A stretch of DNA of 63,803 bases, the filler included, from Octopus bimaculoides (Eukaryota), in the NCBI RefSeq assembly GCF_001194135.2. It is 5 parts of 5 records of this genome, joined end to end, with 100 filler letters (N's around TTAATTAATTAA, not from the genome) between each part and the next. Parts side by side here need not be neighbours in the genome. Positions count along the whole stretch, not along the records: positions 1 to 14,919 come from NC_068985.1; positions 15,020 to 31,420 come from NC_068999.1; positions 31,521 to 55,689 come from NC_069005.1; 2 more parts are not named here. The stretch is one strand, 5' to 3'. Under the pieces are notes generated by a model that worked only from the letters and a program-made list of their open reading frames with translations, was not told the origin of the DNA and ran no database searches. This document shows, piece by piece, positions 12,864 to 58,837 of this stretch. The translations under genes and the position numbers were made by a program. The stretch's first letter is position 1; each line of letters begins with the position of its first letter.

Positions 12864-13219
12864 CAGTCCCCTGAAGGGAATAATACTATTGTTGGTTAGA
12901 CCTAGGAAGCTGCACTGCTTCCTGTCAGCCTTGACACATTTCCTGTGTCCTTATCTTTACAAGGGGGAGAATGTATTTCACTAGAATCATTATATGTTTA
13001 CAAGAGCTTGACAGGCATCTTCGACTAGCAGGTCATGCTACTCCAGACTGATGATGAGCAAAGACTCAGAAACATGTCTCTGGATGCAGGCTTAGCTAAG
13101 TGGAGGTGCTTGTCTCCCCCTTGTAAACATAAGGACACAGGAAATGTGTTAAGGCCGACAGGAAGCAGTGCAGCTTCCTAGGTCTAACCAACAGTAGTAT
13201 TATTCCCTGCAGGGGACTG
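12864..13219. mobile_element. Foldback element: 107-bp inverted arms around a 142-nt loop containing a hammerhead ribozyme
   Basis: 12864-12970 is the reverse complement of 13113-13219 with 5 mismatches. The right arm runs into an N gap. Confidence 0.9.
13042..13084 (+). ncRNA. Minimal type I hammerhead ribozyme (HHR-1)
   Basis: Stem I TCCAGA/TCTGGA; core CTGATGA; stem II TGAG-CAAAGA-CTCA; GAAA; palindromic stem III ACATGT; GTC cleavage triplet (cut after 13078). Confidence 0.85.
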
Positions 13220-13477
13220 NNNNNNNNNNNNNNNNNNNNNNNNNNNNNNNNNNNNNNNNNNNNNNNNNNNNNNNNNNNNNNNNNNNNNNNNNNNNNNNNN
13301 NNNNNNNNNNNNNNNNNNNNNNNNNNNNNNNNNNNNNNNNNNNNNNNNNNNNNNNNNNNNNNNNNNNNNNNNNNNNNNNNNNNNNNNNNNNNNNNNNNNN
13401 NNNNNNNNNNNNNNNNNNNNNNNNNNNNNNNNNNNNNNNNNNNNNNNNNNNNNNNNNNNNNNNNNNNNNNNNNNNNN

Positions 13478-13508
<31 letters not shown>

Positions 13509-13832
13509 TAGATAGATAGATATACATATATATATATATATATATATTTCTTTATTTGTGAATTAAGGCTACCATTGGTTTCATGTTAAGAAAAGTAGGG
13601 GATCTAGATGGTTTGGCAGCCAGCATTTCAAAAATTAAAGTTTATCAAAATAGAAAAATATCCTAGTATCTTAACAATTTCTCAAGCCAATCACATGGAG
13701 AAAGGTGTTCACCTCCATTTTAGAAAACTGTATCATTTTGTTCACAGGGTTTCTCATAAATTCATGTAAATAAAATAATGAATTGATGAATCAAGGCATC
13801 ATGAGCCTATATATCTGTGATACGAGCCTGTA

Positions 13833-14269
13833 TATCTGTTCACACTATACGAAAACAATCATATTGTGTACAAATATTGATGACGTAATATTTAACTATG
13901 GTCATTTGTTAGCAGTTTTGATTCATCATCCTTTAGTAGCTTTCAACACATTAACACACGAGTACAAGTAGGCAATGTAAATATTACATATACATAACTA
14001 TCGTTTTTAAAATAAAAAAATTATAATAATAATAATTTATTATTTAACTATAATTTCTAGACTGCAACTGGATAACTTATAATTAAATTTCTTAAGTGGT
14101 TAAATATTTTAATGACATTTTGATCTATCATAAGTGATAGTTTCATTTAGGAATAATGTTTTTTTTTTAAGCTTCTAGTTTAAAGTAATCGTATTGAAAT
14201 ATCGTTTAAGCTAACTAACGGATATTTTGTTTTTGTTTTTCAACACATTACACACACATGTGCACAAAT
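13833..14269 (+). repeat. Second copy of the 9265-9684 repeat
   Basis: Shared blocks such as TTATTTAACTATAATT.CTAGA, GACATTTTGATCTATCATAAGT and TTCAACACATTA. Confidence 0.75.
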
Positions 14270-14514
14270 GCATTAAACAAGTTAGCATTTACAAAAGTAA
14301 TGTTTTATTTTAAATACATTGGTTGCTGAAACGCACATATTTGAGTCTATCAAATTCTTCACCTGATGGAATACCTAATTAATGATATCCAATATGGAAA
14401 TTTAATTTAATTTAATTGCTTAAATTGATTCAGGCAAAATTAAGTTTAATATTGTTCAGAATTATGTTCTAATAAATTGGTGTCCATATGCCAGTTTCTC
14501 CATTTTCCTTTATT

Positions 14515-14554
<40 letters not shown>

Positions 14555-14683
14555 TATTTAGATCTCTACCAAATATTTGGTAAAAATATTATACCTGTTA
14601 TCAACGTAGCAACAAAATTCTCATATGAAAGGTCATTAAACAAGTTTTTACGATGGATCGCGTTATAGCTCTTATTCAAACTG

Positions 14684-14918
14684 ATCATCATCATCATCAT
14701 CATCATCGTTTAACGTCCGCTTTCCATGCTAGCATGGGTTGGACGATTTGACTGAGGACTGGTGAAACCGGATGGCAACACCAGGCTCCAGTCTAATTTG
14801 GCAGAGTTTCTACAGCTGGATGCCCTTCCTAACGCCAACCACTCAGAGAGTGTAGTGGGTGCTTTTACGTGTCACCCGCACGAAAACGGCCACGCTCGAA
14901 ATGGTGTCTTTTATGTGC
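14684..14918 (-). mobile_element. RTE-tail-type non-autonomous element / LINE 3' end with (GAT)n tail
   Basis: (CAT)n followed by GCTGGATGCCCTTCCTAACGCCAACCAC, typical of RTE 3' UTRs. A related plus-strand piece lies at about 61700-61855. Confidence 0.7.
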
Positions 14919-16699
14919 CNNNNNNNNNNNNNNNNNNNNNNNNNNNNNNNNNNNNNNNNNNNNTTAATTAATTAANNNNNNNNNNNNNNNNNNNNNNNNN
15001 NNNNNNNNNNNNNNNNNNNTATATATATATGCGTATGTATATACATATTTATATATATATATACACACATAAATACATACGTTATCTCCCTCTCTCTATT
15101 ATATATATACATGAAAATTAAGATATTTAAAGCATTAAGTAAATTATAGTTACTTCTAAGTAATATATTAATTAAAATTATTATTATTATAGACAAAATA
15201 TCCGGTACCCAAACAATCGCCCATGCACAAATCACACCCTTGTATACACATTGGTTAGTTTCCACAACACATATAAATACACAAACTCATAGAGGCAATC
15301 ATTACAAATAATTAAAGCACACACACNNNNNNNNNNATTTAATTAAATAGTGAGTTATTATGATATTTTATCTGTTATTTACATAAATATTTAAATACAA
15401 TTAACCTCTGTATTACAGTGTCTGCTAATGTATATTCGGAAAGACATCGGTTATTACCTGATAAACATACAGATCAAAAGAAATATATGCTCATGTTTGT
15501 GTATACATATTAAGCACTTATAGGCATACAGACTTTATATATACATACAAAAATACACACACACACACACGGACACATACGCATATAAGTGCAAATGATA
15601 AATAGGTATGTATGTAGAATCACACACATACATGAATGTGTACATCTGCGTCTATACATACGTAGAAAGATAGGATGTAACGTATGATGTGTCTCCGTAT
15701 TTGTATTATGTATATGTCAGCCTTTATATACATGTGTGTGTATGTATATANNNNNNNNNNNNNNNNNNNNNNNNNNNNNNNNNNNNNNNNNNNNNNNNNN
15801 NNNNNNNNNNNNNNNNNNNNNNNNNNNNNNNNNNNNNNNNNNNNNNNNNNNNNNNNNNNNNNNNNNNNNNNNNNNNNNNNNNNNNNNNNNNNNNNNNNNN
15901 NNNNNNNNNNNNNNNNNNNNNNNNNNNNNNNNNNNNNNNNNNNNNNNNNNNNNNNNNNNNNNNNNNNNNNNNNNNNNNNNNNNNNNNNNNNNNNNNNNNN
16001 NNNNNNNNNNNNNNNNNNNNNNNNNNNNNNNNNNNNNNNNNNNNNNNNNNNNNNNNNNNNNNNNNNNNNNNNNNNNNNNNNNNNNNNNNNNNNNNNNNNN
16101 NNNNNNNNNNNNNNNNNNNNNNNNNNNNNNNNNNNNNNNNNNNNNNNNNNNNNNNNNNNNNNNNNNNNNNNNNNNNNNNNNNNNNNNNNNNNNNNNNNNN
16201 NNNNNNNNNNNNNNNNNNNNNNNNNNNNNNNNNNNNNNNNNNNNNNNNNNNNNNNNNNNNNNNNNNNNNNNNNNNNNNNNNNNNNNNNNNNNNNNNNNNN
16301 NNNNNNNNNNNNNNNNNNNNNNNNNNNNNNNNNNNNNNNNNNNNNNNNNNNNNNNNNNNNNNNNNNNNNNNNNNNNNNNNNNNNNNNNNNNNNNNNNNNN
16401 NNNNNNNNNNNNNNNNNNNNNNNNNNNNNNNNNNNNNNNNNNNNNNNNNNNNNNNNNNNNNNNNNNNNNNNNNNNNNNNNNNNNNNNNNNNNNNNNNNNN
16501 NNNNNNNNNNNNNNNNNNNNNNNNNNNNNNNNNNNNNNNNNNNNNNNNNNNNNNNNNNNNNNNNNNNNNNNNNNNNNNNNNNNNNNNNNNNNNNNNNNNN
16601 NNNNNNNNNNNNNNNNNNNNNNNNNNNNNNNNNNNNNNNNNNNNNNNNNNNNNNNNNNNNNNNNNNNNNNNNNNNNNNNNNNNNNNNNNNNNNNNNNNN

Positions 16700-16733
<34 letters not shown>

Positions 16734-16900
16734 CAACCATATGTATGGCTGTATGTACATGTATGCATATATACATACACACATAGACATATAGATAGAA
16801 AGATACATCGATATTTAGCGACATAAATGCATAGCTACATATATATGCATGCATACACATACATATATACATACATATATTTATACATATATATACTTTT

Positions 16901-17285
16901 ATCCTTTTATTCGTTTACTTGCTTCATTTGGCTGGAGACATGGTAGATCACTACATTTCAGTTGAAGAAACCGACCACGGGATTTATATTACGTAAGCGT
17001 GGTACTTATTTTATCAGTCTCTTCTGGCGAACCACTTGATGCAGACGGTAAACACACCAACATATGTTGTCAAATGATTGGGAAGTAGGACAAACACAGA
17101 CACAATAACACGCACATATACGACGGGCTTCCTTTAGTTTCCGTCTTCCACATCAACTCACAAGGTTTTTGGTCGGTCCGAAATTATAGTAGATGACACC
17201 TGCCCAAGTTGGCACGTTGTGGGACTGAACCTGGAACAACGAGGTTGGGAAGCAAGCTTCTTGCCACAGAGCCAATCCTGTGCCT
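16901..17285 (-). mobile_element. SINE-like family A, full length
   Basis: Same head, body and tail as 5541-5912. Confidence 0.8.
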
Positions 17286-17288
17286 ATG

Positions 17289-17377
<89 letters not shown>

Positions 17378-18344
17378 TGCTTTCATTAATTTCGGATTAT
17401 AGTAGATTAAATTTTATATTTTAAACATCAGCAATACAGTATACATTTCCAAAAGTACATATTTATTATCCACCTACAAGAAAATCGCGATATCAAAATC
17501 TGGTCGGCTAGCCTCAGAGTCCTTTACATTGAGGCCACTGTCATTACGCCTCTCTTAAAGTAAATGTGTGTGTGTGTTTAGGCATATTTACTGATTATTC
17601 CACAGGCACTTAAAGCTTCTATGCAATATTGAGGCAGTATCAGCTGTGGAGAAGTTGGCCTTTGATCCGGCCTTTTAAACTACAGATAAAATGTATTAGA
17701 CCATGGAATTGTGTTCCCCTAACAGATAGACTATATTCTGTGTTTCAAATCAATGTTCTATACATTAATTTAAAAAAATGGCATAACACATATCGTTTAC
17801 GAATTTGGAGCAGTTTTAAATTTCTGTTTGCCACTAATAATATATAAACACGTATACATATTTATTTTATGCTCAGTAATAATAAAAAAACAATTTTACT
17901 TTAATCTCATGGCTTACTCTAGACATTTGTAAAATACAAAATTATTATTCTTATAAGAGTATATAGTTGACTGTGTCTTAGACGTTTCGGGTAGCTAAGC
18001 CGTCGTCGTATTGCAATGAATTACAGGAGGTCTTGCCTTTATACTCTCTGTTTTGAGTTTAAAATATCTTTTGATATGTGGATTTGAGTGGGGTGGCAAT
18101 TAGGATTTCATAGTCGGTCGCTATGCAAATGTGTTTAGGAAATAATTTTCTAGTCATTAAATTTGGGGTTATGTTATTGTTTAGAATTTATTCATGCATA
18201 GAGAAGCATTTTTGCCGCCTTCAGTATCGTTAGAATTAAAATCCGACCCCAATGTTCCACTGGTACTTAGTTTATCGAACCCGAAAGGATGAAAGACAAA
18301 GTCGATGTAATTTGGGCTTAGAACGTGAGGACAGACAAATTGCC

Positions 18345-18376
18345 GATGACGATGATGATGATGATGATGAAGATGG

Positions 18377-18430
<54 letters not shown>

Positions 18431-18560
18431 CGACGACGATGACGACAATGATGATGATGGTGATGGTGGTGGTGGTGATGACGTTGATGAAAACGATGGT
18501 GGCGGTTCTGATAAGGATTATGGTGGTGATGATCACGACGACAACGATGATGATGATGAA
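18345..18560. repeat. (GAT)n/(GGT)n trinucleotide tract
   Basis: Seen directly; it explains the poly-D, poly-M and poly-I ORFs in the track. Confidence 0.95.
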
Positions 18561-18599
18561 AAATAATAATACATTTGTGTGTGCCCGTATATGCTTACC

Positions 18600-18676
<77 letters not shown>

Positions 18677-19740
18677 TATACCTGCATACATATATACATG
18701 TTTATATTCACGTATACACACCCTGGTATATACGCTCACATGTGTTTGCTTTCGATTATTTATATGGTTCACATTCATTGTTGTCTAACCTGTTAGCTCA
18801 ATACTTATTTTCATGTGTTTCTATAGATGGCGCTTTTATCGCTCTATTTTACAATGACATGACTATGGCGCGTCCACACATCCTGTATATTAAATTTAGC
18901 TAGGTGTCAAAATTTCCCTTCAGCATTATTTACCTTGACCCCCCCCCTCTCATTCGCAACCTCATCCAAACTTCACCGCCATTATATATCACACGACTTC
19001 TCTCTCACTCTTAACTCACCGTTTCTCCTTCTCTGCCATTCCCCGCTTTACACTCCCTCTCACTCATCTCTTTAACAAATTAGACCACTAAGCTTTTTCG
19101 TGTAGTTGGTGTGACAATTAATGGCTTTTTTTTTTTTTTTTTCGTTTCTCGGTTTTATTCTTAGTCTTTCTTTTACGATTTTTATATTTTCGCTGTCACT
19201 GGGGAGGTTATACATTGTAATTGCGGAGTAAACCACCAGTTTTAAGGCCCGCTTTCAAATGCTCTTTAACTATTTCCTTATTATTCCTGACATGAAATCA
19301 TTTATTTTATTTATCATTTATTTTTCCTTGCTCTAAGCGTACATGCAAATAAGAAACAGAAGCGAAGAGATCTCAAGTACGTTCCTCATATTATATCATT
19401 CAGTTCACTGAAAAAATTGAAATCGTTTAATCAAATCTACTGTATTAGCCATCTTACAAAAATATATTTTAGATCATGCTTATCTATGACACACATGGGT
19501 GTGTGTATGTGTGTACATTATTTTGTTCGTTTGCTTACTTCAGTCATCAAAGTGCGGCCATTTTGGGGCAGCGCTTTGAGAAATTTTATTCGAAAGAATA
19601 GACGCTAGTACTTATTTTTTTGTTAGGTTTGGTACTTATTGAATTGGTTTCTTTGGCCGAGCCGCTAAGTTGCGAAGACATACACGCACGCCAAAGCCAA
19701 TTTATAAGCGCTGCTAGGGGACATGCACAGACAAACAGAA

Positions 19741-19781
<41 letters not shown>

Positions 19782-19873
19782 NNNNNNNNNNNNNNNNNNN
19801 NNNNNNNNNNNNNNNNNNNNNNNNNNNNNNNNNNNNNNNNNNNNNNNNNNNNNNNNNNNNNNNNNNNNNNNNN

Positions 19874-19916
<43 letters not shown>

Positions 19917-21050
19917 ATAAGGCTTAATATAACATACACTTTCGCTGTATTGTATAAATAGCGAAATATGCAAGTAGAACGTAGAAAAGGTAAACTGAAA
20001 AGGACAAACGGATTTGAAAATCCCCTTTCCTATGTCAAGCACAGATAATAACTAAACATATCAATCGAAATACTATGAGCGGTTCTCAAATTAACGTTAA
20101 TATACGCACTAACATAGCATCTTCATTTAGACATACGTAGGTCATTCTAGAACTTGTGTCCAAGCAAACACAATCCTGACCTATATTTCCGATCGAATCT
20201 CTATCAGAGGAACTTGAAATTAAAGTGTAAATAACTAGTTAAAGATTTCTTTCTCAACACATCATCTTCTGTGTTTGAGCTTTGGAAGAATGAAAGTGAA
20301 CCCCCGTTATACGGGAAACAAAACCGTGAAGTCTTTATGAAATTTCGCAAAGCGTTATACCTGCCAAACATAGAGTCTGGTAGCTTTCGCACTTACAATT
20401 CTATTAAGATGTGATTATGCACACACAATATATCATGTGTTTGTTGAAAAATAATAGTCACAACGACAAGATATAACGTATTTCTAAATACTGATTTTTC
20501 ACTGTTTGGTTTCTTTGTGCGCTTATTAAAGTACTATACTTTATTTACATATAGAGTAAATATTACTTTTAACCATCCATATATTTATGCAGCTTCGAAT
20601 ACATACAGGTACAGATACAACTTATATAGGTTTGTGCTTTTATACACATACAAATAATCATACACGCACATACTTTTGTGTGTGAATGTGTGTCTGTGAG
20701 CGTAATTGTCTATGTATGTACCTACGTTTACATTAATTCACATACACACACACGCTTAATACCGCAAATGTCTATATAAACTCACATTCCCACATATACG
20801 TGTGTGTATGTGTGTGCGCGTATGTGGGTGCATATGCCTATATATATATGTGTGTGTGGGTGTGGGTGTGTGTGCGTATTCTTCTGCGTGTGTATGTTTG
20901 TTTTATATACATTTATTATGCATGCAGGCAAAACGAATATAGCTGTCCAAATATTTACTTAACTATGTTTAGCTGTGTTAGACGGATAGATGGTTAAGTT
21001 AGTTTGTTTTTAGGGATGAAGGGACTACTAGTATCGCCACTACCATCACC

Positions 21051-21081
<31 letters not shown>

Positions 21082-21265
21082 ATAATAATAATAATAATTG
21101 CACCAACTGGAACGTTACAAAAACAGGCTGACACGCAAATCTGTAGCACAAGGTGAAGACAACGACTCATTTTGACTTAGTCTGTAAATCTACCTCGGTG
21201 GATATTAAGTACGGCCAGTCAGGTAAGTTTTAACAAGCAGGTAGATATGAAAGTTAAGATCGGCT

Positions 21266-21370
21266 GGTAGGTAGGTAGGTAGGTAGGTAGGTAGGTAGGT
21301 ATGACGGTAGGTAGGTAAGTAGGTAGGTAGGTAGATAGGTAGGTAGGTAGATAGGTAGGTAGGTGGGTAG
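21266..21370. repeat. (GGTA)n tetranucleotide tract
   Basis: Seen directly in the sequence. Confidence 0.95.
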
Positions 21371-22093
21371 GATTGTTGGTTGACAGGTATGCACTGGAGG
21401 TGAAGTAGGCAGAGGGTGATGCTAGGTGAATGACAACAACACCAGCTGCTTGTTATAGACTTATATGCCTAGAAGAAGCAGGTGATAACTAAATGATCTT
21501 CAACAGACAGCAACGAACGAAAAAAAATAATAATAAATGAAATCCTAATGTAAATTAGTGTTTAAGATGTTTAAGGATGAATTTATGGGATTTGCAATGA
21601 GGTTTATAGGTAGTGAGGACTTTAAAATAGATGAGAAAATTAAAGGATAATAATATGATGTCGGTGTTTGCGTTATCTATTTATTTATTTAGTTCCTTTC
21701 GATGGAAAAATAAAATAGAATGACTTGCTCCGTAATTAAGATTCACCAGGACCCAACGCCTCTAGCGTCGGACAAACATATTTCAGTTTACTAATTTTAT
21801 TTACATTTCGCTGACCGGCCCGTGGATGGGGAAGCAATAACAGAAACGAATAAATATATTACAATTAAGTGAGCTTTTATTTTTTTTAATACGTTCACAA
21901 TGCTATTCTTGATATTTTCATTTATTGCTTTTTATTTTTCATCATTGCCTTTTGGGGTCGAGCAGATTACAGATGTAGTAGGCGAGTACTTCGAATGATT
22001 TGTTTGTTTTTTCCTCCCCTTCTTTAGGAGAATGCCTGGTTTGATGATTTTGTAATGATTCTTGCGTTTTTTTTTGTTCATTATTATTTACAG

Positions 22094-22407: not shown

Positions 22408-23645
22408 GTGAGTTCCAGGAGAGCCGATCAACCTCAAGAACCCCTCAGACAGGTGTCCCTTAACGTAGTTCCAACGGAGATTCAGCTTGAAATAGACGAT
22501 GACAAGGTTGGTCCTTTGAAATACTGATAAAGCTCATTTTTGCCAGTTGAGTAATCTCCAGCAACATGGAAAAAGTACATGGCTCGAAAACACAACACAC
22601 CATCGGTAATCGAACCCACGATTGTGAGGTAAATGACCTAACCGGTAAGCCACGTGACTTCACTTTACATTCCAAACGCAGATGCTGACCAGTGGAAAAT
22701 TTCCCAGCAATATCGACTTCGTGAAAAACATTTTGTAATAAGAATCATTAGTTTCAATTATCAATTAGCAATAGTTGAGAAATGCATGGCAGACTTCATC
22801 CAATCAAATATTCATCAAAATATTTGTGAGGTGGGAGTTCGACGTGTGGCAAGTACAGTGACACCATTTCTTAAGTTTCGGCCTTATTAAAGAGGCATAG
22901 GTAGATATATTCATATATAACCAAGTAACTGAAGGAGTGAAAATTTTCATTATATTACTTGAACAAATAATGTTTCATTTTCCTTTAGGTGTTTCGGTCA
23001 TTGGACTGAGACAACGTTAGGGCACCAACTGCAAGTATTTAATTTATTAAATCAACTCTGGTGTTTAAGTTTTATGTGCGGTTCGCTCATTGCCTGTCTG
23101 CTTTGACCAACCGGTAGTTGATAGTTAAATACGAACTTGTGCCACTAATACATACGCAATATTATTATGTCGCACTGGTACAAAAATTATAACACTCGAC
23201 GCAATTTTTACTGGCACAAAAATATACAGCTAATATTTTTATGATATTAAATGAAATAGAATTTTCCTTTTTAATCTATATTTTTATATGGATCACAGAT
23301 TAAATGAAACACATTTTCTTACAGAAATAAAAGAAACCAATCAGATTTTCATGCAAAATGTGATGTATTTACCACAAAATATCGATTTAAAATTTCGGTT
23401 TAGAAAAAAGTTCACGATTATTTATAGTACACTATTTATCGATTACTCGCATTCTTCTCCGTTTCTTTTTTTCTGATTTGTTTTTCTTTATAATTTTTCG
23501 GTATATTTTCTTTCTTGAAATTTCAGAAACAAAAATCAATATTTTTACATGGGAATTGAACCTCTCCTCATAAGTCTTGTATCATGTTGTTCCATATGCA
23601 TCGTTCCCATATATATTCAGTATTGTATTGATCGGTACGTATATA

Positions 23646-24533
23646 TACACTAGTGGATCCAAAAGTAACTGGAAACGTTGTAGTTGAGGCATCCACCACA
23701 AGATGCCACTTGATGAGACCCTCAGGAATCATTCCGTCTTCCGGCGTTATTCAGTGTTCAGTTGGATCAAACTCCCATGTTGTACGTCTTTGTTTTTCAG
23801 AGCTTCTCCCCTTTTCGTCGATTTTTGTAATAGCTGAAATAAAGGAACAAAGTACTCTCATGAAATTCTGTTTTTTTTTGCTGGAGAAAATGGCGACCGA
23901 AATAGTTGTCATTCGGCAGACAGCTTACAAGGCCACAGCCATGAGCAAAACACAAGCTTACCAGGGGTTTTCAAGCTTTCGGGAATTTCACACTTGTCGC
24001 TTGATGACCCTCCTCGTTCAGAGCGACAGTCAACGTGTCGAACGAATGAAAACATCATGAAAATTCATGAAATTATCTTTGAAGACTGTCACTGAACAAT
24101 TAACGAAATTGTTGATATGACTGATGTGTCCCGGAACTCCTGCAAACGCATTTTGAACGAGGAATTGCGAATGAAAAGAGAGGCAAGTAAATGTGCACTT
24201 CGCTTACTGATGGACAATCAAGAACAGTCACCACTGAATGCATGTTGTGAGCTGAAAGAAGTGGAAGTTGAACCCGTCCTTTCTTCGAAGGTCATCACAG
24301 CCGACGATAGTTGGTGCTACGGAATTTGCAGGTATATAAGTTGTGAAGAGATAAACGACGGAGGCGTTAAAAGGACTCTTTCAACAACACTGCTCCCAGC
24401 AGTGGTAAACGCTCTGTACCGATGCACTGCCTCAAATGGTGACAACTTTGAAGGCGATAAAAGTGTTGAAACGTAAATATGTGAATAAAATAATAATGCA
24501 AAAATTTCGGCTCCTTTTTAGCACACCCTTTAA
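23646..24533 (+). mobile_element. Degenerate, internally deleted mariner transposon
   Basis: EQSTLMKFCF...EKMATE...AYKATAMSKTQAYQGFSSFRE (N-terminal HTH region); CKRILNEELRMKREASKCALRLL...KVITADDSWCYG (first DDD Asp region); C-terminus RCTASNGDNFEGD; degenerate TA-flanked TIRs. Confidence 0.9.
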
Positions 24534-24715
24534 TNNNNNNNNNNNNNNNNNNNNNNNNNNNNNNNNNNNNNNNNNNNNNNNNNNNNNNNNNNNNNNNNNN
24601 NNNNNNNNNNNNNNNNNNNNNNNNNNNNNNNNNNNNNNNNNNNNNNNNNNNNNNNNNNNGTGTGTGTGTGCATGTGTGTGTGTGTGCATGTGTGTGTGTG
24701 TGTGTGTGTGTGTGT

Positions 24716-28334: not shown

Positions 28335-28404
<70 letters not shown>

Positions 28405-32582: not shown

Positions 32583-32936
32583 TGTAGTAACGCTGTGCGC
32601 ATGCGTAGTCTCACGCATGCGTGGAATTCAACAACCAAGCTTCCCGCTTCATTCTGTCTCTTTCTTGCTGGCCAGCGATTGAGCAAGGACGTGTTTAACT
32701 GTCTCTCTCCATCTTTCGAACTCACGCTAGACGGCTCGCTCACAACTACATACCAACGTCCCAACAACCATGCTCACACACACAGAAGACGTAACAACAA
32801 ACAAGAGCTAAAGATGTATATATATTCCACCTTGAATAAATGTTGTTATGTTGATAGTCTGGAGTTCAGCGTTCCGTTATATTCTTAATTTTATATAGGA
32901 AAGTCAGGATACATCTAATGATGTATAATCCACTTT

Positions 32937-32942
<6 letters not shown>
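32583..32942 (+). mobile_element. 3' LTR of a Gypsy-like element, same family as 5-336
   Basis: TGTAGTAAC start, AATAAA, terminal hairpin and CCTATA end. Homologous to the reverse complement of 5-336. Confidence 0.7.
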
Positions 32943-32982
<40 letters not shown>

Positions 32983-35900: not shown

Positions 35901-38900
35901 GTATTTCTGTTTACAGCATATTTTCTTTTTTAGCTTTCTTTTGTATTTTTTATTCGTCTTTTATTTTTCTTTATTAAAACAAAGTTTTGTCCTCATAAAA
36001 TACACTTTAGACTTTTTCTTTGGTTAGAATATCGACGTCAGACACACACACGCAATATATAAAATATTATTCATAATGCTCTATGAAAGCACATTTATAG
36101 AAAACACACCTTTAAACACGCACCTACCTATATCTTAGCCACTTTTTTTTAACCACAATATATCTATGTCAAGATTATAAGTCCATGTCATGATAAAAAA
36201 AAAATATATCCTCAGGGGGGCATTTCACTTTCGTCATCTCCACGATTTTGTTAGTGTTTTTACAAAAACAAACAGCAGAAAGTAAAAATAATTATTACGA
36301 AAAAGCCGGCGTGTTTGTCTTTTGAAGAAAATATATTTGTGGTAGTAATTTCCTTGACAATATCACATTTAGTCGAGAACAGAAAAGCAACATCTCTCAC
36401 AAAAAACAATTAAATATATTAGTACATATTAGTAAATTTACGTGCAAATTTAGAGATATAAATGTAGCTGTTTAGCCCTAAGTCAGCGCTAGCTGTGCAG
36501 ATCTATAATCAAAAGGGTTCCGGCCATGACCACGTTTTGTCTTTTTGCATACTCACACCGTTTAATGTATCCTTCCTTTTTCTCAAATAGACCGAGGTCA
36601 GTCCTAGTCGAGCAGACTTATAAAAGGTGTGTTTCAACCATAACGATTTTATCATTTCTGGGGTTACACTTAGGACTGTATTAATAATTGTGCCCTTTCC
36701 TTATTTAAAACGGTAGGGTGTGATTTGAAGGCAGTGCTACAGCATGGCCTAAACCCTGACAGCATGTATATGCACACACACACAGATAAATGCACCAATA
36801 TATAGGTTTAGCCACCCGTTTACAGATGTGTTTGTCACAAGTAGCTACATGGATTATTTGTCTCGCTTTCGGGAGATAATACTGATTCCTCGAATTGTTG
36901 ATATCTCGCTCATTCTATATATCTGTAGTTATATCTCCTCCTTTATTAGCTATTTACCTAGATCTTTATCCACTATCTAGGTTCTCATCTATCTAGCAAA
37001 GCAATCATCTGTCTCTTTATCTATCTATCTATCTATTTATTCATATATTTATATATACATGTGTGAAAACGTGTGTGCATGCAGTAAATAATATCACATC
37101 AATAAATATATCACATGTATATATATATATCCAGTGTCTTGTTGACGGACTTCAAACTTTGCTAACGACGCTTTTTCAATAGTTGAGTTTTCTTAGCCTT
37201 TTGTCGAATGCCTGGTGGGTTTAAGGTTGGAAGAATAAGTTTAATTACGTCTCCCATTTACATTTTGATTTTTTAAACACAGTCTTAGAAAACAAGCAAG
37301 ATATGAGAAAACAGCAACTGGAAACGAAGGCGCCTTTGCTGTAACGCAGTCGTTCGATCTGGTAGGAAATGGTAAAAATTCTCCCTCAAAATAGACCCTC
37401 CTCCCTTTAAAAACGGGCGAACATTATTTAATGTAGTTCTATATACGCTGTGGGGCGGAATAAAAGATGGGATGATCATTGTTTGACTGTTCTTTTTTTT
37501 TCATATGTCTGTGCTAGATCAGTATTGACCTAGGGTTGAACATCTATAACTAAAAATCAATCAGAACATTTTAAAACCCATATTCATAAATCGTCGTTTT
37601 GTTGTTTAGCCCCCAATCAGTCCTGGTCGACCAGACATATTGTCAAATGAATCGTCGTCGTGACCATCTCGAATATTTTTCTATGTGAAGGGAACTCAAT
37701 ACCACCATATACACTTTAAAGATGGTAAAGTGTGATTTAAAGCAAATTTGGCTACTATTTCTAGTAGTTCGAGCGACTACGTAGATATCAAAATAAAGTA
37801 GTGCTCTAGCCTAGCCTTACTCTTCAAGGCTAAAACAAACTATTTGTGTTGTTATTGTTTAGCTCAAAGCGGCGAGCTGCCCAAATCATTAACGCTTTGG
37901 ACAAAATGCTTAGCGGCATTTCTTCTGGCTATTTACGTTTTGAGTTCAAATTTTACCGAGGTCGGCTTTACCTTTCATCCTTTCGGTATTGAGTACTAGG
38001 GTTGATGTAATCGACTAACCCCTTCCCCCTAAAAGTAGCTGGTTTTGTACCAAAATTTGAAACCATTGTTGTTCAGTTCAGCCCCAGGTCAACTTTCATC
38101 GGTCAAACCTATGATCAATAGTTTTCCAACCTTCTCTGTTGTTTTTTTTTTTTTTTTTTGGTGAGGTATTAGGAAGGGCGAGGTTTTGGAATAGCTGTCA
38201 ATCGAAGTTCCACACTTGATGGAGGAAGGAAAGAGGTAGCATTTTTTTTTCTTGTAAAGTATTCCTCTATTTCAGACAACGGAAATTACAATTTTGGAAA
38301 AAAATTTTCTTCCGAATATTTTATATTGATTTTTTTCTACATTTTTGTCCCCATCCACTTCCGTAACCTTTACCCTTTTCCTAACAGCTCGTGCGACCAC
38401 ACAGAAGTCCCCTCGTTGGTTTACTACCCACCGAGGTGTTGTTGTTTAGCCCTAGGTCTTTGACAGAGCAAACCTTTGATACAATGTATTTCAGTGGCGA
38501 TCATCCCGCCCTTTTTACGGTGGTGATAGTATCTATAACTTCGTCATGTAATGTGCCCTTCCTTTTTGTCAGACAGTGTTTCCTGCAGCTGGTGCGAACA
38601 TTTAGAGATGTCTTCGTTGGCTCACCACCTACCGATCTTGTTAATGTCAAGGTATTCCAGAGAAGACCATCCCGCCCTTCTTTTGGTGATTGTGTGATAT
38701 CGACTACGTTATCTAATATGTCTATCCCTTTGTTTTTATAAGAATGCGCGGTGAGATTTGAGAAAGGCTTGGTTGTTGTTTCCAGCATATTGCTTGACCA
38801 TGTAGAGGCTCTCTCTTTGCTTGTTTGTCACCTATTTTGTTCCTAAAGGTTAACAATATTATATTTCTAAAAGATTGCCCTCCACGCCATTACATTTGCT

Positions 38901-39014
38901 TGTTACTCATTTAAGAAGCACCCAGCACAAAGAGGTTTTTTTTTTAATTGAATGAAAGAGAGAAGAGGAGGGGGATTAGATTTTCAACATCACAGACCAT
39001 AATAATGATGACTT

Positions 39015-39615
39015 CAAATTTTGGCACAAGACCAGCAGTTTCAGGGGAAGGGCTAAGTAGATTAGATCGACCCCATTGCTCTACTGGTACTTATTTTATC
39101 GACCCCAAAAGGTTGAATGATAAAGTCGACTTCGGCGGAAATTGAACTCGGGACGTAAAGACGGACGAAATGCCGCTAAGCATTTTGTTCAGCGTGCTAA
39201 CGATTCTGCAGCTTGCCACTTTAATGATAATAATAATAATAATAGTTTCAAATTTTTGCACAAGGCCATCAATTTCGGGGGAGTGGGTAAGTCGATGAGA
39301 TCGATCCCCGTGCTTAACTGACACTTTTTTTTTTTATCGACTCCGAAAGGATGAAAGGCGAAGTCGACATCGCTAAGCACTTTGATCGGCATGCTAACGA
39401 TTCTGCCAGCTTGTCATTGCACCGGCCTCAATAAACTACTGCACTCTATTACGTTGTTTGTATTGAGTGTTTCATCTTCCGATCATTATTTAGCTTGTGT
39501 GCGTGTATGTGTGTGTTTTGGTTTCAATTTTTGGCACAATTTCGGAGGAGGGAGTAAGTCGATTACATTGATCAGTGGTACTTATTTTATCGACCCTAAC
39601 GCATTTGAACTCAGA
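39015..39615 (-). mobile_element. Head-to-tail array of three family B SINEs
   Basis: Repeated ATCGACCCCGAAAGGATGAAAGGCAAAGTCGAC blocks separated by (TAA)n. Confidence 0.8.
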
Positions 39616-40154
39616 ACAATTCAGTTTTTCCAGAATATCCTATGTATAAATAAAAATCTTGTTTACATAGCTCTGAATTTCTGTGTGTGTGTGTATGCGA
39701 GAGAGAGAGATTGACAAATATATATATATATATATATATATTGACCGATAGATTAGGCAGTATAGATAAACATACATAAAGGGAAAGCATGTAACAGATG
39801 ATCGAAACGACTGTTAGAGGGTGAGCATTTCGTCCTGTAGAGAGAGAGAGAGAGAGAGATATCCTGATTCAACAAAACATGAATTATTCCGGATCTATTG
39901 TTGTTCAGAAATTATCATCATTGTTATTAATTATTCACTGTTGTTATCAGGTTAACCGGTTAGTTGTTCTCATTGGTATCTCTGTATGAGTATGTGTTAA
40001 CATTGTGTGTGTGTATGCGTGCGCGTGTGTACTTGACAAGAAGTGGTTTTATAGGACTTGTTCTGTTGCATTCTTGGAATTCAACAGAACTAGACTTGTA
40101 CAAGTCACTTATCATTAAACATGTCAAAATAGCCTCTACTTGATATTATTCTTT

Positions 40155-40558
40155 TCTACACAAGGCCCGAAATTTTGAGGGAGGGGACCAGTCGATTAGA
40201 TCGGCTCCAGTACGCAACTGGTACTTAATTTATCGACCCCGAAAGGATGAAAGGCAAAGTCGACTTCGGCGGAATTTGAATTCAGAACGTAAAGACGGAC
40301 GAAATACCGCTAAGCATTTCGCTCGGCTTGCTAACGTTTCTTATTTCTTTATTGCCCATAGAGGGGACAAACAAGGACAGACAAAGGGATTAAGTCGATT
40401 ACATCGACCCCAGTGCGTAGCTGGTACTTAATTTATCGACCCCGAAAGGATGAAAGGCAAAGTCGACCTCGGCGGAATTTGAACTCAGAACGTAACGACA
40501 GACGAAATACCGCTAAGCATTTCGCCCGGCTTGCTAACGTTTCTGCCAGCTCGCCACC
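40155..40558 (-). mobile_element. Two young tandem family B SINEs with CpGs intact and different 3' tails
   Basis: Near-identical cores at 40220-40335 and 40420-40540. Confidence 0.9.
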
Positions 40559-40674
40559 TTTCTACTTGATATTATTGAGTAGCTTTCTGCTTTCCTCCGT
40601 TTTTTTGTCTTAATTTTCATTATCTAAATCACCAACTACAATTATGTGTGTGACCATCTCAGCATCATACTAGA

Positions 40675-40850
40675 TGTATATGCATTGTTGATAGGCGAGT
40701 TCCTGCAGTATTTGTTCTGAGATAACATCTGTGGACTTGCTGTGTTAAAAGCACAATAAATATCGGAGGCGTCTTTTTAACACAAGCCCATAATAGATGG
40801 TATCTCTGGACAAATATTGCAGTAACAGGCGTATCGATAGTGCATATACA
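40675..40850. mobile_element. Palindromic MITE-like foldback (arms of about 80 bp, about 75-80% complementary)
   Basis: TGTATATGCATTGTTGATAGG...TGTGTTAAAAG pairs with CTTTTTAACACA...CGATAGTGCATATACA around a loop of about 16-20 nt. Confidence 0.75.
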
Positions 40851-40950
40851 TTAAGTATGATACATGGACGGCTGTTTTTATTTAACAATGCTTCAGTTGC
40901 GTATACCGGGGACGGACACACACGTACGTGTGTATGTATATGTGTATAGA

Positions 40951-40983
<33 letters not shown>

Positions 40984-42974
40984 CAGAAGCAATAAAGGGA
41001 CGAAAGTTTCGTGTGTTAGCACTTATATATGATGAACTCTCCTACTGTAGGGAACAGATGAGAGTTCCTCAGTTTTTTGTTGAACAACCTGCTCAGATGT
41101 GATCAAATGTTTGTGCTGTACATTAGCTCACACCCTTCATCAAATTGACATTGCCTGTACACGCCAGATGTCGAAGTGCTAGCAGAACAGCGTGAGATGA
41201 AGTGTATTTTTGCTCAAGAACACAACACATCGGCGACTCTGGGAATCGAAACCACCATTTGCAATTGTGGGTGCAACACCCTAACTATTAAGCCACGCAT
41301 CCTCACATACAGACATGCATGCACGCTTATATGTCTTTTTTTATTATAGGTACAAGGCCTGATTTTTTTTTTGTGGGGACCTAGTCGATTAGATCGGATC
41401 CAGTACGCAACTGGTACTTAATTTATCGACCCCGAAAGGATGAAAGGCAAAGTCGACCTCGGCAGAATTTGAACTTAGAACGTCAAGATGGACGAAATAC
41501 TTCTAAGCATTTTTATCCGTCGTGCTAACGATTCTGCCAGCTCGCCACGTATATATAATCAATATTTAAGCATTTATTACTAAGTTCGTGTTTAGTTTGC
41601 TTTTGTAGCTTCACTACCACCATCACTGCAATCATCATCGAGTCCTAGTTTCCTATGAATTTCGCTGTCATGCCCTTCCAGGTTTAACAGTAAATCTACA
41701 GAAACCTTCCAAAATGAATCTTCATCATTTTCGTTATGTTGCTGTGTAGTCTCGGTTACACAACTCCGAGTGTGCAGATCTATGATCAAACGAAACTCCG
41801 CTTTGACTATCACGTCTTACGATTCTTTTTCTTTTCTGTTTTTGAAGATTGAAGGTTGCGGATCTGACGGCGATTCGACGACTGTTTCTAAGCTCGTTCA
41901 AGCGACTGTTTAGAACAAGACATCAACAACTTTTTGTAATCNNNNNNNNNNNNNNNNNNNNNNNNNNNNNNNNNNNNNNNNNNNNNNNNNNNNNNNNNNN
42001 NNNNNNNNNNNNNNNNNNNNNNNNNNNNNNNNNNNNNNNNNNNNNNNNNNNNNNNNNNNNNNNNNNNNNNNNNNNNNNNNNNNNNNNNNNNNNNNNNNNN
42101 NNNNNNNNNNNNNNNNNNNNNNNNNNNNNNNNNNNNNNNNNNNNNNNNNNNNNNNNNNNNNNNNNNNNNNNNNNNNNNNNNNNNNNNNNNNNNNNNNNNN
42201 NNNNNNNNNNNNNNNNNNNNNNNNNNNNNNNNNNNNNNNNNNNNNNNNNNNNNNNNNNNNNNNNNNNNNNNNNNNNNNNNNNNNNNNNNNNNNNNNNNNN
42301 NNNNNNNNNNNNNNNNNNNNNNNNNNNNNNNNNNNNNNNNNNNNNNNNNNNNNNNNNNNNNNNNNNNNNNNNNNNNNNNNNNNNNNNNNNNNNNNNNNNN
42401 NNNNNNNNNNNNNNNNNNNNNNNNNNNNNNNNNNNNNNNNNNNNNNNNNNNNNNNNNNNNNNNNNNNNNNNNNNNNNNNNNNNNNNNNNNNNNNNNNNNN
42501 NNNNNNNNNNNNNNNNNNNNNNNNNNNNNNNNNNNNNNNNNNNNNNNNNNNNNNNNNNNNNNNNNNNNNNNNNNNNNNNNNNNNNNNNNNNNNNNNNNNN
42601 NNNNNNNNNNNNNNNNNNNNNNNNNNNNNNNNNNNNNNNNNNNNNNNNNNNNNNNNNNNNNNNNNNNNNNNNNNNNNNNNNNNNNNTAATACAGAACCGA
42701 CTGGTATATAACATAGTTCTCATGTGTTTTGTTTTGTTGATTAATCTCTTCCCTGTGTGTGTGTGTGTGTTTTAACTTGTTGCTGGTAGGGGTTAGGGCG
42801 ATTAAGAAGGGGATCGATTTTATTTTCCTTCTTTTGTTTTCCCCCGCCCCTCCTCTCACTCTTCGTTAACTGCATTTCGATTTGTTTCCATAGGAAGGAA
42901 ATTGAGAGAAAAGAGGAATGTTAAGTTACTTGAATGTTTTCGTTTATTTGAAACGAACCCCAGCATTTAGCGCA

Positions 42975-43014
<40 letters not shown>

Positions 43015-43299
43015 AGACTTTATATAATTGTTCTTTCAGTGTACCTGCTTAATTTAAGTAATACTCCTAAATATCCCTTCACATGTAACTTTACTATCTC
43101 ACCATTAGATAATACAACGCAGCATAAATGCAGTCTTAACTCTTAAAAGGCAGATGGTGACAGTTGCATTACTAAGATCGTAGGGCTGTATGCTCAATCA
43201 GAGTATACTGGAAGTTTGACAAAAATGGGAATGCCAATCAGATAGCGTCTATTTGGTAGCTCTACCACTATAGAAATCTCTCACTCATCTCATACTCTA

Positions 43300-43720
43300 A
43301 TGTCTTTCAAAGTGTACAACAAATTTCTCAGAAATCACACCCTGTTGTGCTCATAGCATAGACAAATGACCTCAGAATCATACCCTAAGTTAAATAGCAC
43401 AGACAAATCTCCCTGAAATTACACCCTATTGTGTTCTTAGCACAAACAAATTTCCTTTTGATTTACAACCTATTGTCACAAATATCACAAACAAATTTTT
43501 AAATCACACCCTATTTGTGCTCAGGGCACAGACAAATGGCCTCCCTAAATCATAGCATGTTTTAAATAGCTCAGACAAATCTCAGAAATCAAACTCTAAT
43601 GTATTCATAATACAAACAAATGACCCCCACAAAATTGTCGCCTGTTTTAAATAACAGGAACAAATCTCCCTCAAATCATCTCCTGTTATGTTCATAGCAT
43701 GGTTAAATGGCCTAAAATCA
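43300..43720. repeat. Degenerate minisatellite of about 42 bp (about 10 units) derived from family E
   Basis: Unit approximately CACAGACAAATCTCCCTCAAATCACACCCTATTGTGCTCATAG. Its core is the reverse complement of the family E segment GTAGGGTGTGATTTGAGGGAGATTTG. Confidence 0.75.
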
Positions 43721-43769
43721 AGATTGAGAAGGAGCCTCCACTACAATATATATATATATATATATATAT

Positions 43770-44225
43770 GAGAAGGGATGACCACTAAGTGGACATCTAT
43801 TACGCTAGAGATAGACCATCTACGGTCAAACCACAAAAGAAAAGAATGTTCTCTAGGGAAATTCAGTGCACACCAGAACATGAACGGGCAAGACAAATGA
43901 AAATATACAAAATAAAGAATTAATCGTAGACCAGGTTTCGCACATTAATGGATTAATGTAATTTTTACTTACATAACCCATCCAAGGCTCATCAGTACAA
44001 CCGTTCGAATTCAATATAATTTGCAGAACAATACACGAATTGTCCACATAAAATTAGACATGAGTACAGTTCTACCGATTACATTGGAGTTATTTTCAAA
44101 AGTCCCAGCTCTAGCGTGCTAAATACCGGAAACAATTCTGCAGAAGATAATTCACTGCAGTAACCATTGCCAGTTAGAGAACATTATTAAAATTTAAATA
44201 AGGGTTAGGATTAGGGTATTTAAAT
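43770..44225 (-). mobile_element. Non-coding element of about 450 bp between (AT)n tracts, carrying HHR-2
   Basis: Bounded by (AT)n at 43746-43769 and about 44240-44255. Confidence 0.6.
43922..44002 (-). ncRNA. Type I hammerhead ribozyme with extended stem II (HHR-2)
   Basis: Minus strand: GGTTGTA-CTGATGA-GC[long hairpin including ATGTAA/TTACAT and GGAT/ATCC]GC-GAAA-C-CTG-GTC-TACGATT. Stem I has 7 bp with 3 G-U pairs; stem III is the quasi-palindrome ACCTGGT. Confidence 0.8.
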
Positions 44226-45016
44226 TTTAATTATTTAAATATATATATATATATAATCAGAGGCGACTCCAGGTCATCAGTGTCACTCGGGCTCATCACA
44301 GATTTCACATTTGACACATTCCTGCTCAAAGAATTTCATGTTTTTCCACTTTATTTCTAGCCCAAAATGGTATATCTAGCACTGTCTTTTTCCATTTCTA
44401 AGTTAAGGGTAAAAATAAAGCAACCCTGCAAAACGCAACTGATTTTTACACACAGACACACAGAATAACAGCAATCAAATAACGACAGCGGAATGCACAA
44501 CAAACATCAGTGATCTGACTGTTGCTTGTACTCAGTCTTTTACACTTGCCAGGCTTGTTCGTGTTAGCCCGAGTTACTAGATAATTTTTCATTCCTTTAA
44601 GAATATTGTAGAACAGAAACTTTTCGTAGATTGGAATTTAAATCTTAATCTCTACTGAAATTTATTGTTTCAAGAAAACATTGAATTTGAATTACTTTTA
44701 ATTTTTACAATTATAGATGACAACTTGGGCTGTCACTTCTGTGCCCGAGTCAGGTGTGTGTAGACAATGTCAAGAGAACGTCTGCTACGAATGATATTTT
44801 TTGACACAGAGCACCTCTAGGATGACCACCAGATGCTGAACAAAAATAAATGATCTGTGACTAGGCTCAATAAAAGGAGCCCAAGTTATAGGCTGCAATT
44901 ACATACTTGAAGTCAGTGTTGGCAGAAATTAAATCAGCTTGACTAAATTTATACTTGGGCTAAACCTGAACAGCCTGTGTGCCGGAGTTGCTGCTGATAT
45001 ATATATATATATATAA

Positions 45017-45350
45017 ATAGATGTGTGTATTTTGCCCTTGTTTACAATTAGCATGGAAAAAATAAATAAACAGTTACCAGGGTAGCAAAAAGTCACACAA
45101 GTAAAAAGGGCATAACACCTTGTTTTTACAAGTAGAAACTCCGGGTTTATGTGAAATATTTTGTATAATATATATATTTATATATCATGTTCTGTTAAAA
45201 TGTCTTATTGACGAGTTTTATTTCTTTATTTCCCTGAAGAGAAGATTACATTGTTTTACTCCATTTTATTCCTTTGGAATAATACCAATATCTTCGAAAC
45301 AGGTGTTGGAAGTAAAAGAATTTGAATAACACCTGTGTTTAACTCCATTT
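45017..45350 (+). mobile_element. Non-coding element of about 330 bp between (AT)n tracts, carrying HHR-3
   Basis: Bounded by (AT)n at about 44997-45016 and 45351-45378. Confidence 0.55.
45227..45314 (+). ncRNA. Type I hammerhead ribozyme with long loop II (HHR-3)
   Basis: Stem I TATTTCC/GGAAGTA; core CTGAAGA; stem II GAAGAT...ATCTTC; GAAA; C-AGGT-G; GTT triplet (cut after 45307). Confidence 0.75.
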
Positions 45351-46242
45351 GTATATATATATATATATATATATATATTACACTCATATACACATAGACC
45401 AATGTGATACAATTTAGCTTTAGGTAAGCTCTTATTGAATAGATCTGATAAAATGTTCCAGCAATGACCATCCTGTATTTTCACCAGGACCACATTTCCA
45501 ATGTCTGTTTTCAAGAAACTAGGATGTTACTTGAGAGATATTTGGTTGCTATTTGTAGTAAGTCAGGCTACCAAGGATGGGCTCTCATCGGCTTGGTATT
45601 CATAAATTGTTTTATAGTTGAGCTAAGTTGTCATTGTTTACTTTGGTGATAGGAAAAAAATAATGATCACCAGAAGTCTGTGAGATATGAAATTAGCTGA
45701 GGAGACAGCAGCACATTATAGGGTGTATACAGCAAGAGGCTGTGTGTAGTAGTTGGTTAACTGTATGTAGGTTCTGAATGAACAGACCTATGTTCAAAGA
45801 GAACTAAGAGAATGATCTATGCTGGAACAGCTATGACCATCCCATCAAATGTTTCCAGTTTACTTTATCTATTATAGGCACAGATGTAGGTGTGTGGCTA
45901 AGAAGTTTCCCACATGGTTTTAAGTTCAGTTCCACTACATGATATCTTGGGCAAGTGTCTTTCACTATAGCCCTGGGCAGACCAAAACTGAAAGAAGCCC
46001 ATTGTATACATGTATATGTTTGTATGTATATATGTATGTCCATGTGCATGAGTGTGAATATGTTTGTGTCTCCTTGTCTTGATGTTTTGTGATTGTTGTA
46101 AATGAATGTCATTAATTTCCAATATTCTGTGGAAACATGTCTGGTCATGGAGAAATATTAACTTTCTTGGAAACAGGTGAGGGTTAGTGACAGAAAAGGT
46201 ATGTGGCTGTAGAAAACCTGCCTCAATAGCATGAAAAAGTGA

Positions 46243-58832: not shown

Positions 58833-58837
58833 GCTTG

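Follow-up and report, generated by a model that had tools for sequence, protein, structure and literature searches.

Does a window of 63,803 nucleotides of the Octopus bimaculoides genome (the whole stretch of DNA that was analysed, five parts joined end to end) host a retrozyme-like system? Three hammerhead ribozyme motifs lie in it, and an earlier note on this DNA took them for Penelope-mobilised mini-elements that may yield small RNAs. We analyzed the motifs, the units that carry them, and the DNA and RNA depth of one of their families.

Three type I hammerheads in the window

A type I descriptor, comprising CUGANGA, helix II, GAAA, NUH, and a closing helix I of at least 4 bp, was run on both strands. 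Exactly three matches were found (Table 1), against a mean of 0.03 and a maximum of 1 in block-wise dinucleotide shuffles, where 0 of 200 attained 3. The three type I hammerheads with full core and closing stems that had been reported from this DNA were thus recovered. The bare core pattern, stripped of stems, was no commoner than chance (6 in the window, shuffle mean 3.6, with 14 of 100 shuffles attaining 6), which indicates that the signal comes from the stems.

Table 1. Features located in the window. C3, position reported by the descriptor scan.
Feature	Position	Strand	Details
HHR-1, type I, canonical size	13042..13084	+	C3 13048; core 13048-13054; 14-nt helix II region; GAAA 13069-13072; predicted cut after 13078 (GUC)
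HHR-2, type I	43922..44002	-	C3 and core start 43995; 49-nt helix II region; predicted cut after 43929 on - (GUC)
HHR-3, type I	45225..45316	+	C3 45234; core 45234-45240; 55-nt helix II region; predicted cut after 45307 (GUU)
Unit 1, left arm: inverted copy of the element 3' end, ending before the hammerhead	12832..12970	-	107 bp 95% identical to 13113-13219; outer edge about 12831-12833, judged from loose ends and a step in depth
Unit 1, sense copy: upstream spacer, hammerhead, 3' part	12971..13219	+	reaches assembly gap 13220-13477
Unit 2, 469-bp non-coding segment	43770..44238	-	(TA)n array on each side; no ORF in any of the six frames
Unit 3, 336-bp non-coding segment	45016..45351	+	(TA)n array on each side; no ORF
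Unit 4a, decayed hammerhead-like unit	8706..8958	-	core heptamer at 8912; long hairpin; altered GAAA; 3' end adjoins (TA)n
Unit 4b, more decayed second copy of unit 4	14346..14517	+	3' end also at (TA)n
Decayed Penelope GIY-YIG endonuclease end, Hydra-type motifs	10040..10498	-	CxCx5C; no CCHH; CxxC; out-of-frame CxH at 10074-10066

Helix I of HHR-1, HHR-2, and HHR-3 measured 6, 7, and 9 bp, respectively, with G-U pairs counted. In predicted folds, hammerhead-compatible structures lay 1.6 kcal/mol (HHR-1) and 1.5 kcal/mol (HHR-2) above the minimum free energy, and that of HHR-3 lay 6-10 kcal/mol above it; a competing complement of HHR-3 helix III was located downstream. The predicted fold prolongs helix I of HHR-1 into an imperfect rod about 40 bp long. 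Helix III was palindromic or nearly so in all three hammerheads, with a loop of at most 2 nt. By what is established for this class, and as the earlier note held, each ribozyme would therefore need to dimerise within a tandem transcript in order to cut, and solo copies are consequently probably inert passengers, transcribed by read-through.

No hammerhead was present among the 135 Rfam matches obtained for the whole window at E<=5. Local Rfam scans gave hammerhead matches that were all below threshold (E 8.9, 0.44, and 0.13; RF03152 for HHR-2 at E 0.44 and RF00163 for HHR-3 at E 0.13). The numerous Rfam miRNA matches in the window were rejected as microsatellite artefacts.

Unrelated units and their (TA)n context

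Local alignment scores among units 1, 2, and 3 fell inside the shuffle range, in agreement with the proposal that stems and flanks are unrelated and that three families are present. Further copies of units 1-3 were not found elsewhere in the window, nor was a tandem arrangement of any hammerhead unit, unit 1 being partly hidden by the gap. Being neighbours does not make the three hammerheads one system.

Bracketing by (AT)n or, for HHR-1, a run through a gap into (AT)n had been put forward. The claim stands for units 2 and 3, which lie inside (TA)n arrays: (TA)n-bracketed positions make up 1.4% of the window, and the probability of at least two of three units being bracketed is ~0.0006, calculated post hoc. 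It does not carry over to unit 1, whose one visible end (left, about 12832) is outside (TA)n; since contact with (TA)n is seen at 8 of the window's 20 gaps in any case, its link through the gap is weak. In the two bracketed units, (TA)n is reached 118 and 225 nt downstream of the hammerhead core, and the three distances from hammerhead to inferred 3' end are 118, 225, and about 200 nt, the polarity being inferred from the hammerhead itself. A sequencing-run search with 43775-45345 found part of this region in 20 of the 24 runs listed (best share 0.46; no RNA run among those listed), with matches not located to units 2 or 3 and hence giving no evidence on them.

A GIY-YIG remnant and a decayed fourth unit

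The Penelope GIY-YIG remnant that had been placed at 10.0-10.6 kb was found at 10085-10498(-), with one in-frame stop. It was recognised by motifs and by no profile search: its Hydra-clade motifs were matched by eye to section 11 and the Fig. S2/S7 text of PMC8557442, while Pfam (best T5orf172, E 0.42), NCBIfam, PDB, and homolog searches gave nothing significant and viral contigs gave no match. In its downstream region, the part compared, the remnant shares no sequence with the hammerhead units. A 16-bp direct repeat downstream of it was considered as a hammerhead and rejected because the full core is missing. No reverse transcriptase with RWK and DKT motifs was recognised among the window ORFs.

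Units 4a and 4b were 68% identical over 202 bp (alignment score 101, shuffle maximum 38). Insertion into (TA)n was seen for units 2 and 3 and for both copies of unit 4. (CCCTAA)-like tracts were examined as a feature common to units 2 and 4a and discarded; their polarity is opposite, and the 4a tract falls in a stretch that 4b lacks.

An autonomous parent for units 1-3 was not found, and scans of metagenome and viral contigs were empty; exact-pattern scans gave 0 matches for HHR-1 and HHR-2 in metagenome contigs and for HHR-3 in viral contigs.

Structure and copies of the unit 1 family

Unit 1 contains an inverted repeat that the earlier note did not mention, in which 12864-12970 pairs with the right arm and the arms differ at 5 positions. 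In contigs from two organisms (A and B), the unit 1 family has roughly thousands of copies, with a summed contig depth of 3-7 x 10^5 on HHR-1 and the right arm compared to 80-130 on the unique flank. Upstream of HHR-1, DNA depth dropped from 4.4 x 10^5 to 4-8 x 10^4, and RNA depth dropped too (137, 89, 43, and 39 in X21). These drops are as 5' truncation predicts; alternatively, they may reflect divergence of this copy.

Joints in the family were detected with a likeness setting of 85 and with 20-52 letters on a side. Among the 15 joints listed of 80, all breakpoints were different, each was carried by 1-2 contigs, and some had templated filler; with breakpoints varying in this way, no fixed terminal inverted repeats common to the copies were found among them. 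Eighteen contigs of X13 ran on upstream of 12969 with non-arm sequence. Another 22, of X1, ran beyond the outer end 12831 (agreement 0.73, median 24 letters), an extension that we compared with the optional 30-40 bp Penelope tail. Unit 1 presents variable 5' truncation with an adjoining inverted truncated copy. Inverted 5'-truncated copies and tails are known in Penelope-like elements, such a copy having been noted for Penelope-13_HM (PMC8557442), and the copy-specific junctions of unit 1 fit this pattern.

The HHR-1 core positions carried no variant among the 40 variant rows listed of 188; changes were seen at 13055 and 13079. Position 13055, the extra nucleotide after CUGANGA, was C in 83-90% of contig depth.

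RNA from the unit 1 family

Two RNA runs were examined, with about 6% of each run read, from libraries that may lose small or circular RNA. RNA per DNA depth of the unit 1 family was 2.4-4.4 x 10^-4, compared to 19-22 x 10^-4 in two neighbouring repeats, or about 5-8 times fewer. No pile-up of molecule ends was seen at the predicted HHR-1 cut (13078/79) in either run. RNA reads across the 15 unit 1 joints listed numbered 0, and no 'go back' joint was among these. Depth over HHR-1 equalled that downstream of its predicted cut, suggesting that the templates are likely uncleaved; PAc templates in vitro were likewise reported as uncleaved (PMC11167929). Within the limits set by library type, the two runs gave no sign of abundant, cleaved, or circular RNA from the unit 1 family.

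Comparison with known systems

In Hydra-clade Penelope-like elements (e.g. Hydra-1_Obim and Penelope-13_HM), a sense hammerhead lies within about 100-250 nt of the 3' end (PMC8557442, Craig et al. 2021), and 26 of the 27 Hydra-clade families listed prefer (TA)n (PMC8557442 Files S1 and S2). The units described here resemble these elements in having a type I hammerhead in sense orientation close to the 3' end, a tiny palindromic helix III, and, for units 2 and 3, (TA)n insertion; the endonuclease motifs of the 10.0-10.5 kb remnant, compared with published Hydra sequences by eye, are also alike. They differ in helix II, which in HHR-2 and HHR-3 is longer than in any of the listed Hydra hammerheads (about 25 nt at most), and in the visible end of unit 1 outside (TA)n. 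Six short motifs from HHR-1, HHR-2, and HHR-3 were absent from the text of the PMC8557442 supplement, in which line breaks could hide a match.

Metazoan Penelope pseudo-LTR hammerheads occur as many sequence families per genome, mostly as single motifs ascribed to truncated elements (PMC4209133, Cervera and De la Pena 2014). With these the present motifs share the palindromic helix III, the expected dimer dependence, and the extra nucleotide after CUGANGA, whereas, unlike the strictly minimal type (PMC4209133), all three keep a small helix III and a long helix I. Non-LTR retrozymes have been given a working definition in which units are repeated in tandem and every unit carries a hammerhead (bioRxiv 10.64898/2026.07.22.740005, Li, Clavereau and Pollet 2026). 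The present units share with them a non-coding sequence of 300-470 bp with low GC, a type I hammerhead, and a probable derivation from Penelope ends (PMC7229834, Cervera and de la Pena 2020; bioRxiv 10.64898/2026.07.22.740005); in contrast, no tandem occurs at these loci, and no abundant or circular RNA was seen for the unit 1 family.

Discussion

Our results suggest that each of the three hammerheads probably resides in the 3' end (a pseudo-LTR piece) of a 5'-truncated Penelope-like element, and that three different families are involved. Most likely, what we see is no new circular-RNA system but a hammerhead arrangement for which many animals have provided examples before. The Penelope link drawn earlier held up: hammerhead position and polarity are like those of Hydra-clade elements, unit 1 has the truncation-inversion pattern, and the Hydra-type endonuclease remnant and the decayed, (TA)n-anchored unit 4 in the same window back this reading. 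The GIY-YIG endonuclease of a parent element would nick AT-rich DNA, which for units 2 and 3 would be (TA)n as in the Hydra clade. The reverse transcriptase would then copy RNA from its 3' end and halt early, so that the insertion comprises some hundreds of bases, the hammerhead among them. For unit 1, a second, shorter 3'-end copy may have been joined in inverted orientation, giving the hairpin of 107 bp or more.

It is considerably less probable that at least one unit is a monomer of a dedicated non-autonomous family (a non-LTR retrozyme or a Penelope-dependent mini-element) amplifying itself via cleaved, circularised RNA. In favour of this, the helices of HHR-1 are of canonical size and a predicted rod has this hammerhead at its tip, copies of the family are very numerous, solo monomers are frequent in retrozyme families (bioRxiv 10.64898/2026.07.22.740005), and further units are possibly hidden in the 258-N gap after unit 1. 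The window nevertheless holds no tandem, and the low RNA per DNA depth, the lack of molecule ends accumulating where HHR-1 should cut, and the zero reads on the joints listed speak against such amplification in unit 1. Together with the inversion pattern of the unit 1 family, which is that of truncated Penelope copies, the absence of tandem units in the window leads us to set aside the label of a retrozyme-like system. In a related and equally tentative scheme, unit 1 would stand for a family of thousands of copies that amplifies, ORF-less, as a rod-shaped hammerhead RNA, either a Penelope-dependent SINE-like element or a dispersed retrozyme, and units 2, 3, and the decayed 4 would be a (TA)n-targeted variant with a helix II hairpin of 50-65 nt, which Hydra-clade proteins may use for binding or dimerisation.

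The long, near-perfect arms of unit 1 would also suit a foldback DNA transposon or MITE whose long terminal inverted repeats are fixed and which has captured a hammerhead, and RNA depth summed over both arms was about 1.6 times that of the hammerhead, between one-arm and two-arm expectations. We regard this as very improbable: arm-interior junctions vary between copies, other copies extend upstream with no arm, and DNA depth is five to ten times lower on the left spacer than on the hammerhead. That the hammerheads are chance matches, or the hairpin an assembly artefact, is scarcely credible. Rfam scores are below threshold and the inverted repeat stops at the gap edge, but no shuffle attained the observed count, the arms are not identical, and both the arms and junctions of this kind are found in contigs from two organisms.

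As truncated Penelope ends, these units would enlarge a known class by three or four families that are undescribed, a word that here refers to the literature: our search found no paper on these families or on a hammerhead-bearing MITE, and they are possibly catalogued in Repbase or Dfam, which were outside the search. Penelope ends with hammerheads would form a sizeable, under-annotated share of the genome of this animal. As to what the hammerhead may do in Penelope mobility, cleavage was found dispensable in vitro (PMC11167929). A family with thousands of copies would permit a covariation and selection test of ribozyme maintenance. If it were true that one family amplifies as a free-standing unit with no ORF, it would offer a clean model of retrozyme birth.

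Hammerhead motifs in the window

Scanning with a type I hammerhead descriptor recovered exactly three motifs in the window, at the positions given in the earlier note, while shuffled sequences contained a mean of 0.03 and none of 200 reached three. The core pattern without stems was not above chance in the window, and an Rfam scan, suggested previously, gave only sub-threshold hammerhead matches. The units carrying the motifs were unrelated to one another, in agreement with the three different families claimed; neither second copies within the window nor ORFs were found for units 1–3. Helix III was palindromic or nearly so (ACAUGU in HHR-1, ACC-U-GGU in HHR-2, and ACA-GG-UGU in HHR-3), and its loops are too short for a stable monomer in all three. 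Hammerheads with a small palindromic helix III are established to act as dimers with low activity, according to the available text of PMC4209133 and a review (PMC6765202). The energy cost of forcing the hammerhead fold was 1.6 kcal/mol for HHR-1, 1.5 for HHR-2, and 6-10 for HHR-3; in unit 3, sequence further downstream that is complementary to helix III competes.

The window was AT-rich (GC 22-44%), with 20 assembly gaps, 38 (TA) runs of at least 5 units, and many dispersed repeats, and looks like non-coding animal DNA, perhaps of a cephalopod type. Within a non-LTR fragment, 54433-54765 matched Pfam Exo_endo_phos_2 (E 2e-6).

Features of the window, with positions along the whole stretch
Feature	Position	Strand	Remark
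HHR-1	13042..13084	+	motif of unit 1
HHR-2	43922..44002	-	motif of unit 2
HHR-3	45225..45316	+	motif of unit 3
Unit 1	12832..13219		left arm and sense copy
Unit 2	43770..44238	-	469 bp
Unit 2 5' end	44180-44238		hairpin, telomere-like (CCCTAA) tract in loop
Unit 3	45016..45351	+	336 bp
Between units 2 and 3	44256-44996		(TA)n on both sides
Lone core heptamer	44280	-	same segment; severed by array, no GAAA partner
Unit 4, copy 4a	8706..8958	-	decayed core at 8912(-)
Unit 4, copy 4b	14346..14517	+	
Larger element, copy a	8706-9684	-	ends in unit 4 at (TA)n
Larger element, second copy	13833-14517	+	ends in unit 4 at (TA)n
Endonuclease remnant	10040..10498	-	
Behind remnant	9700-10084	-	16-bp direct repeat, copies 163 nt apart
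Abundant repeat	12513-12560		48-bp piece, well transcribed
Dispersed repeat pair	5-321 / 32614-32942		82% identity
Dispersed repeat pair	57177-57353 / 58669-58844		89% identity
Non-LTR retrotransposon ORF fragments	54142-54768, 61997-62815, 880-1191	-	
Presumed decayed mariner transposase	23632-24476	+	fragments, by motifs; no Pfam match
Identical 12-base AT linkers	14964, 31465, 55734, 61993		each flanked by two 44-N runs; assembly joins, not biology

Units in (TA)n arrays and the endonuclease remnant

Units 2 and 3 each occupied the whole interval between two (TA)n arrays, the 3' array lying 225 nt and 118 nt, respectively, downstream of the core. Such bracketing applied to just 1.4% of window positions (post hoc). 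The (AT)n bracketing proposed earlier held for these two units; the visible outer edge of unit 1, near 12832, lay outside (TA)n and broke into another low-copy repeat. A 5'-truncated copy landing in a (TA)n array would match the appearance of units 2 and 3 exactly. Both copies of unit 4, a decayed hammerhead-like family, also ended at (TA)n. In the available text of PMC8557442, Penelope-like elements of the Hydra clade have a sense-strand hammerhead close to their 3' end, and 26 of the 27 listed families prefer (TA)n; units 2, 3, and 4 share this layout, with helix II regions in units 2 and 3 about twice the longest Hydra example listed there.

The larger element (0.7-0.95 kb) was present in two copies of opposite orientation. 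Copy a had an additional segment with (CTAACC)n. It shared its strand with the endonuclease remnant and lay downstream of it; copy a and the remnant might be one element.

The Penelope GIY-YIG remnant described earlier was recognizable by its motifs: 10085-10498(-) translated as a GIY-YIG end (one stop taken as X) with a CxCx5C linker and CxxC ahead of the conserved E, the GIY and YIG boxes had no cysteine pair between them, and a CxH motif lay just downstream in a different frame. These are all four endonuclease traits stated for Hydra in the available text of PMC8557442. No profile or homolog search confirmed the identity, which is therefore a motif-level call. The remnant and unit 1 lie on opposite strands, 2.3 kb apart; it need not be the parent of any unit. 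The repeat behind the remnant, at 9700-10084(-), looks as if the remnant's 3' end had been partly repeated in tandem, and this stretch holds no intact hammerhead.

Structure, copies, and RNA of unit 1

HHR-1 was flanked by 107-bp arms (95% identical), the right arm continuing into an assembly gap. Two contig sets, X1 from organism A and X13 from organism B, and the raw RNA runs X21 and X22 (about 6% of each run) were mapped on 12300-13219 at likeness 85. Summed contig depth was 3-7 x 10^5 over HHR-1 and the right arm and 80-130 over the unique flank. Relative to a single-copy contig depth of 49, the family was estimated at ~9,000 copies, which we read as thousands because a depth ratio is not a true copy number. 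Contig depth dropped upstream of HHR-1, and breakpoints differed in every joint listed (15 of 80, with 1-2 contigs per joint and matched sides of only 20-52 letters). In X13, 18 contigs ran past 12969 in the upstream direction and lacked the arm; in X1, 22 contigs reached past the outer edge. Taken together, the edge, depth drop, varied joints among those listed, and these contigs fit the Penelope layout already known, in which a 5'-truncated copy lies beside an inverted one, with or without a tail; they do not fit a fixed-end MITE. The abundant repeat at 12513-12560, presumably SINE-like, had the top DNA and RNA depth in this mapping.

RNA reads ran equally in both directions on unit 1, as on the neighbouring repeats. 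RNA per DNA depth (x10^-4) was 2.4-4.4 for unit 1; two of the neighbouring repeats reached 19-22, and a third reached 90-123. Read ends at the HHR-1 cut predicted after 13078, which the earlier note proposed to look for, were not among the pile-ups listed for X21 and X22, where 12377 was the only place, and no RNA reads supported the listed joints (15 of 80).

Origin of the units

The motifs, their flanks, and the unit 1 hairpin were observed directly, as were high abundance and varied junctions for the unit 1 family. We consider it probable that the units are 5'-truncated Penelope ends. The parent's endonuclease would nick AT-rich or (TA)n DNA, reverse transcription would start at the 3' end and halt early, and inversion would arise via second priming or a template switch; the hammerhead may cleave only as a dimer, and solo copies would be inert.

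The main alternative, that some units are instead monomers of self-amplifying, retrozyme-like non-autonomous families, appears unlikely, given the low unit 1 RNA per DNA depth, no listed end pile-up at the cut, and no joint-supporting reads in X21 and X22. Small circles can be lost from standard cDNA libraries, so the RNA result makes retrozymes less probable. Coral retrozymes are tandem with plentiful linear and circular RNA in the available text of PMC7229834, whereas unit 1 gave few RNA reads per DNA depth. The anole element PAc likewise had no read ends at its hammerhead site, and its insertion did not need cleavage, as far as the available text of PMC11167929 states.

In a 2026 preprint (bioRxiv 10.64898/2026.07.22.740005, available text), retrozymes are traced back to Penelope ends, so the two readings form the extremes of a single continuum. 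Searches of the literature and of the available PMC8557442 supplement gave no description of the unit families. Penelope ends with hammerheads are already known as a class, and these families are probably new members of it.
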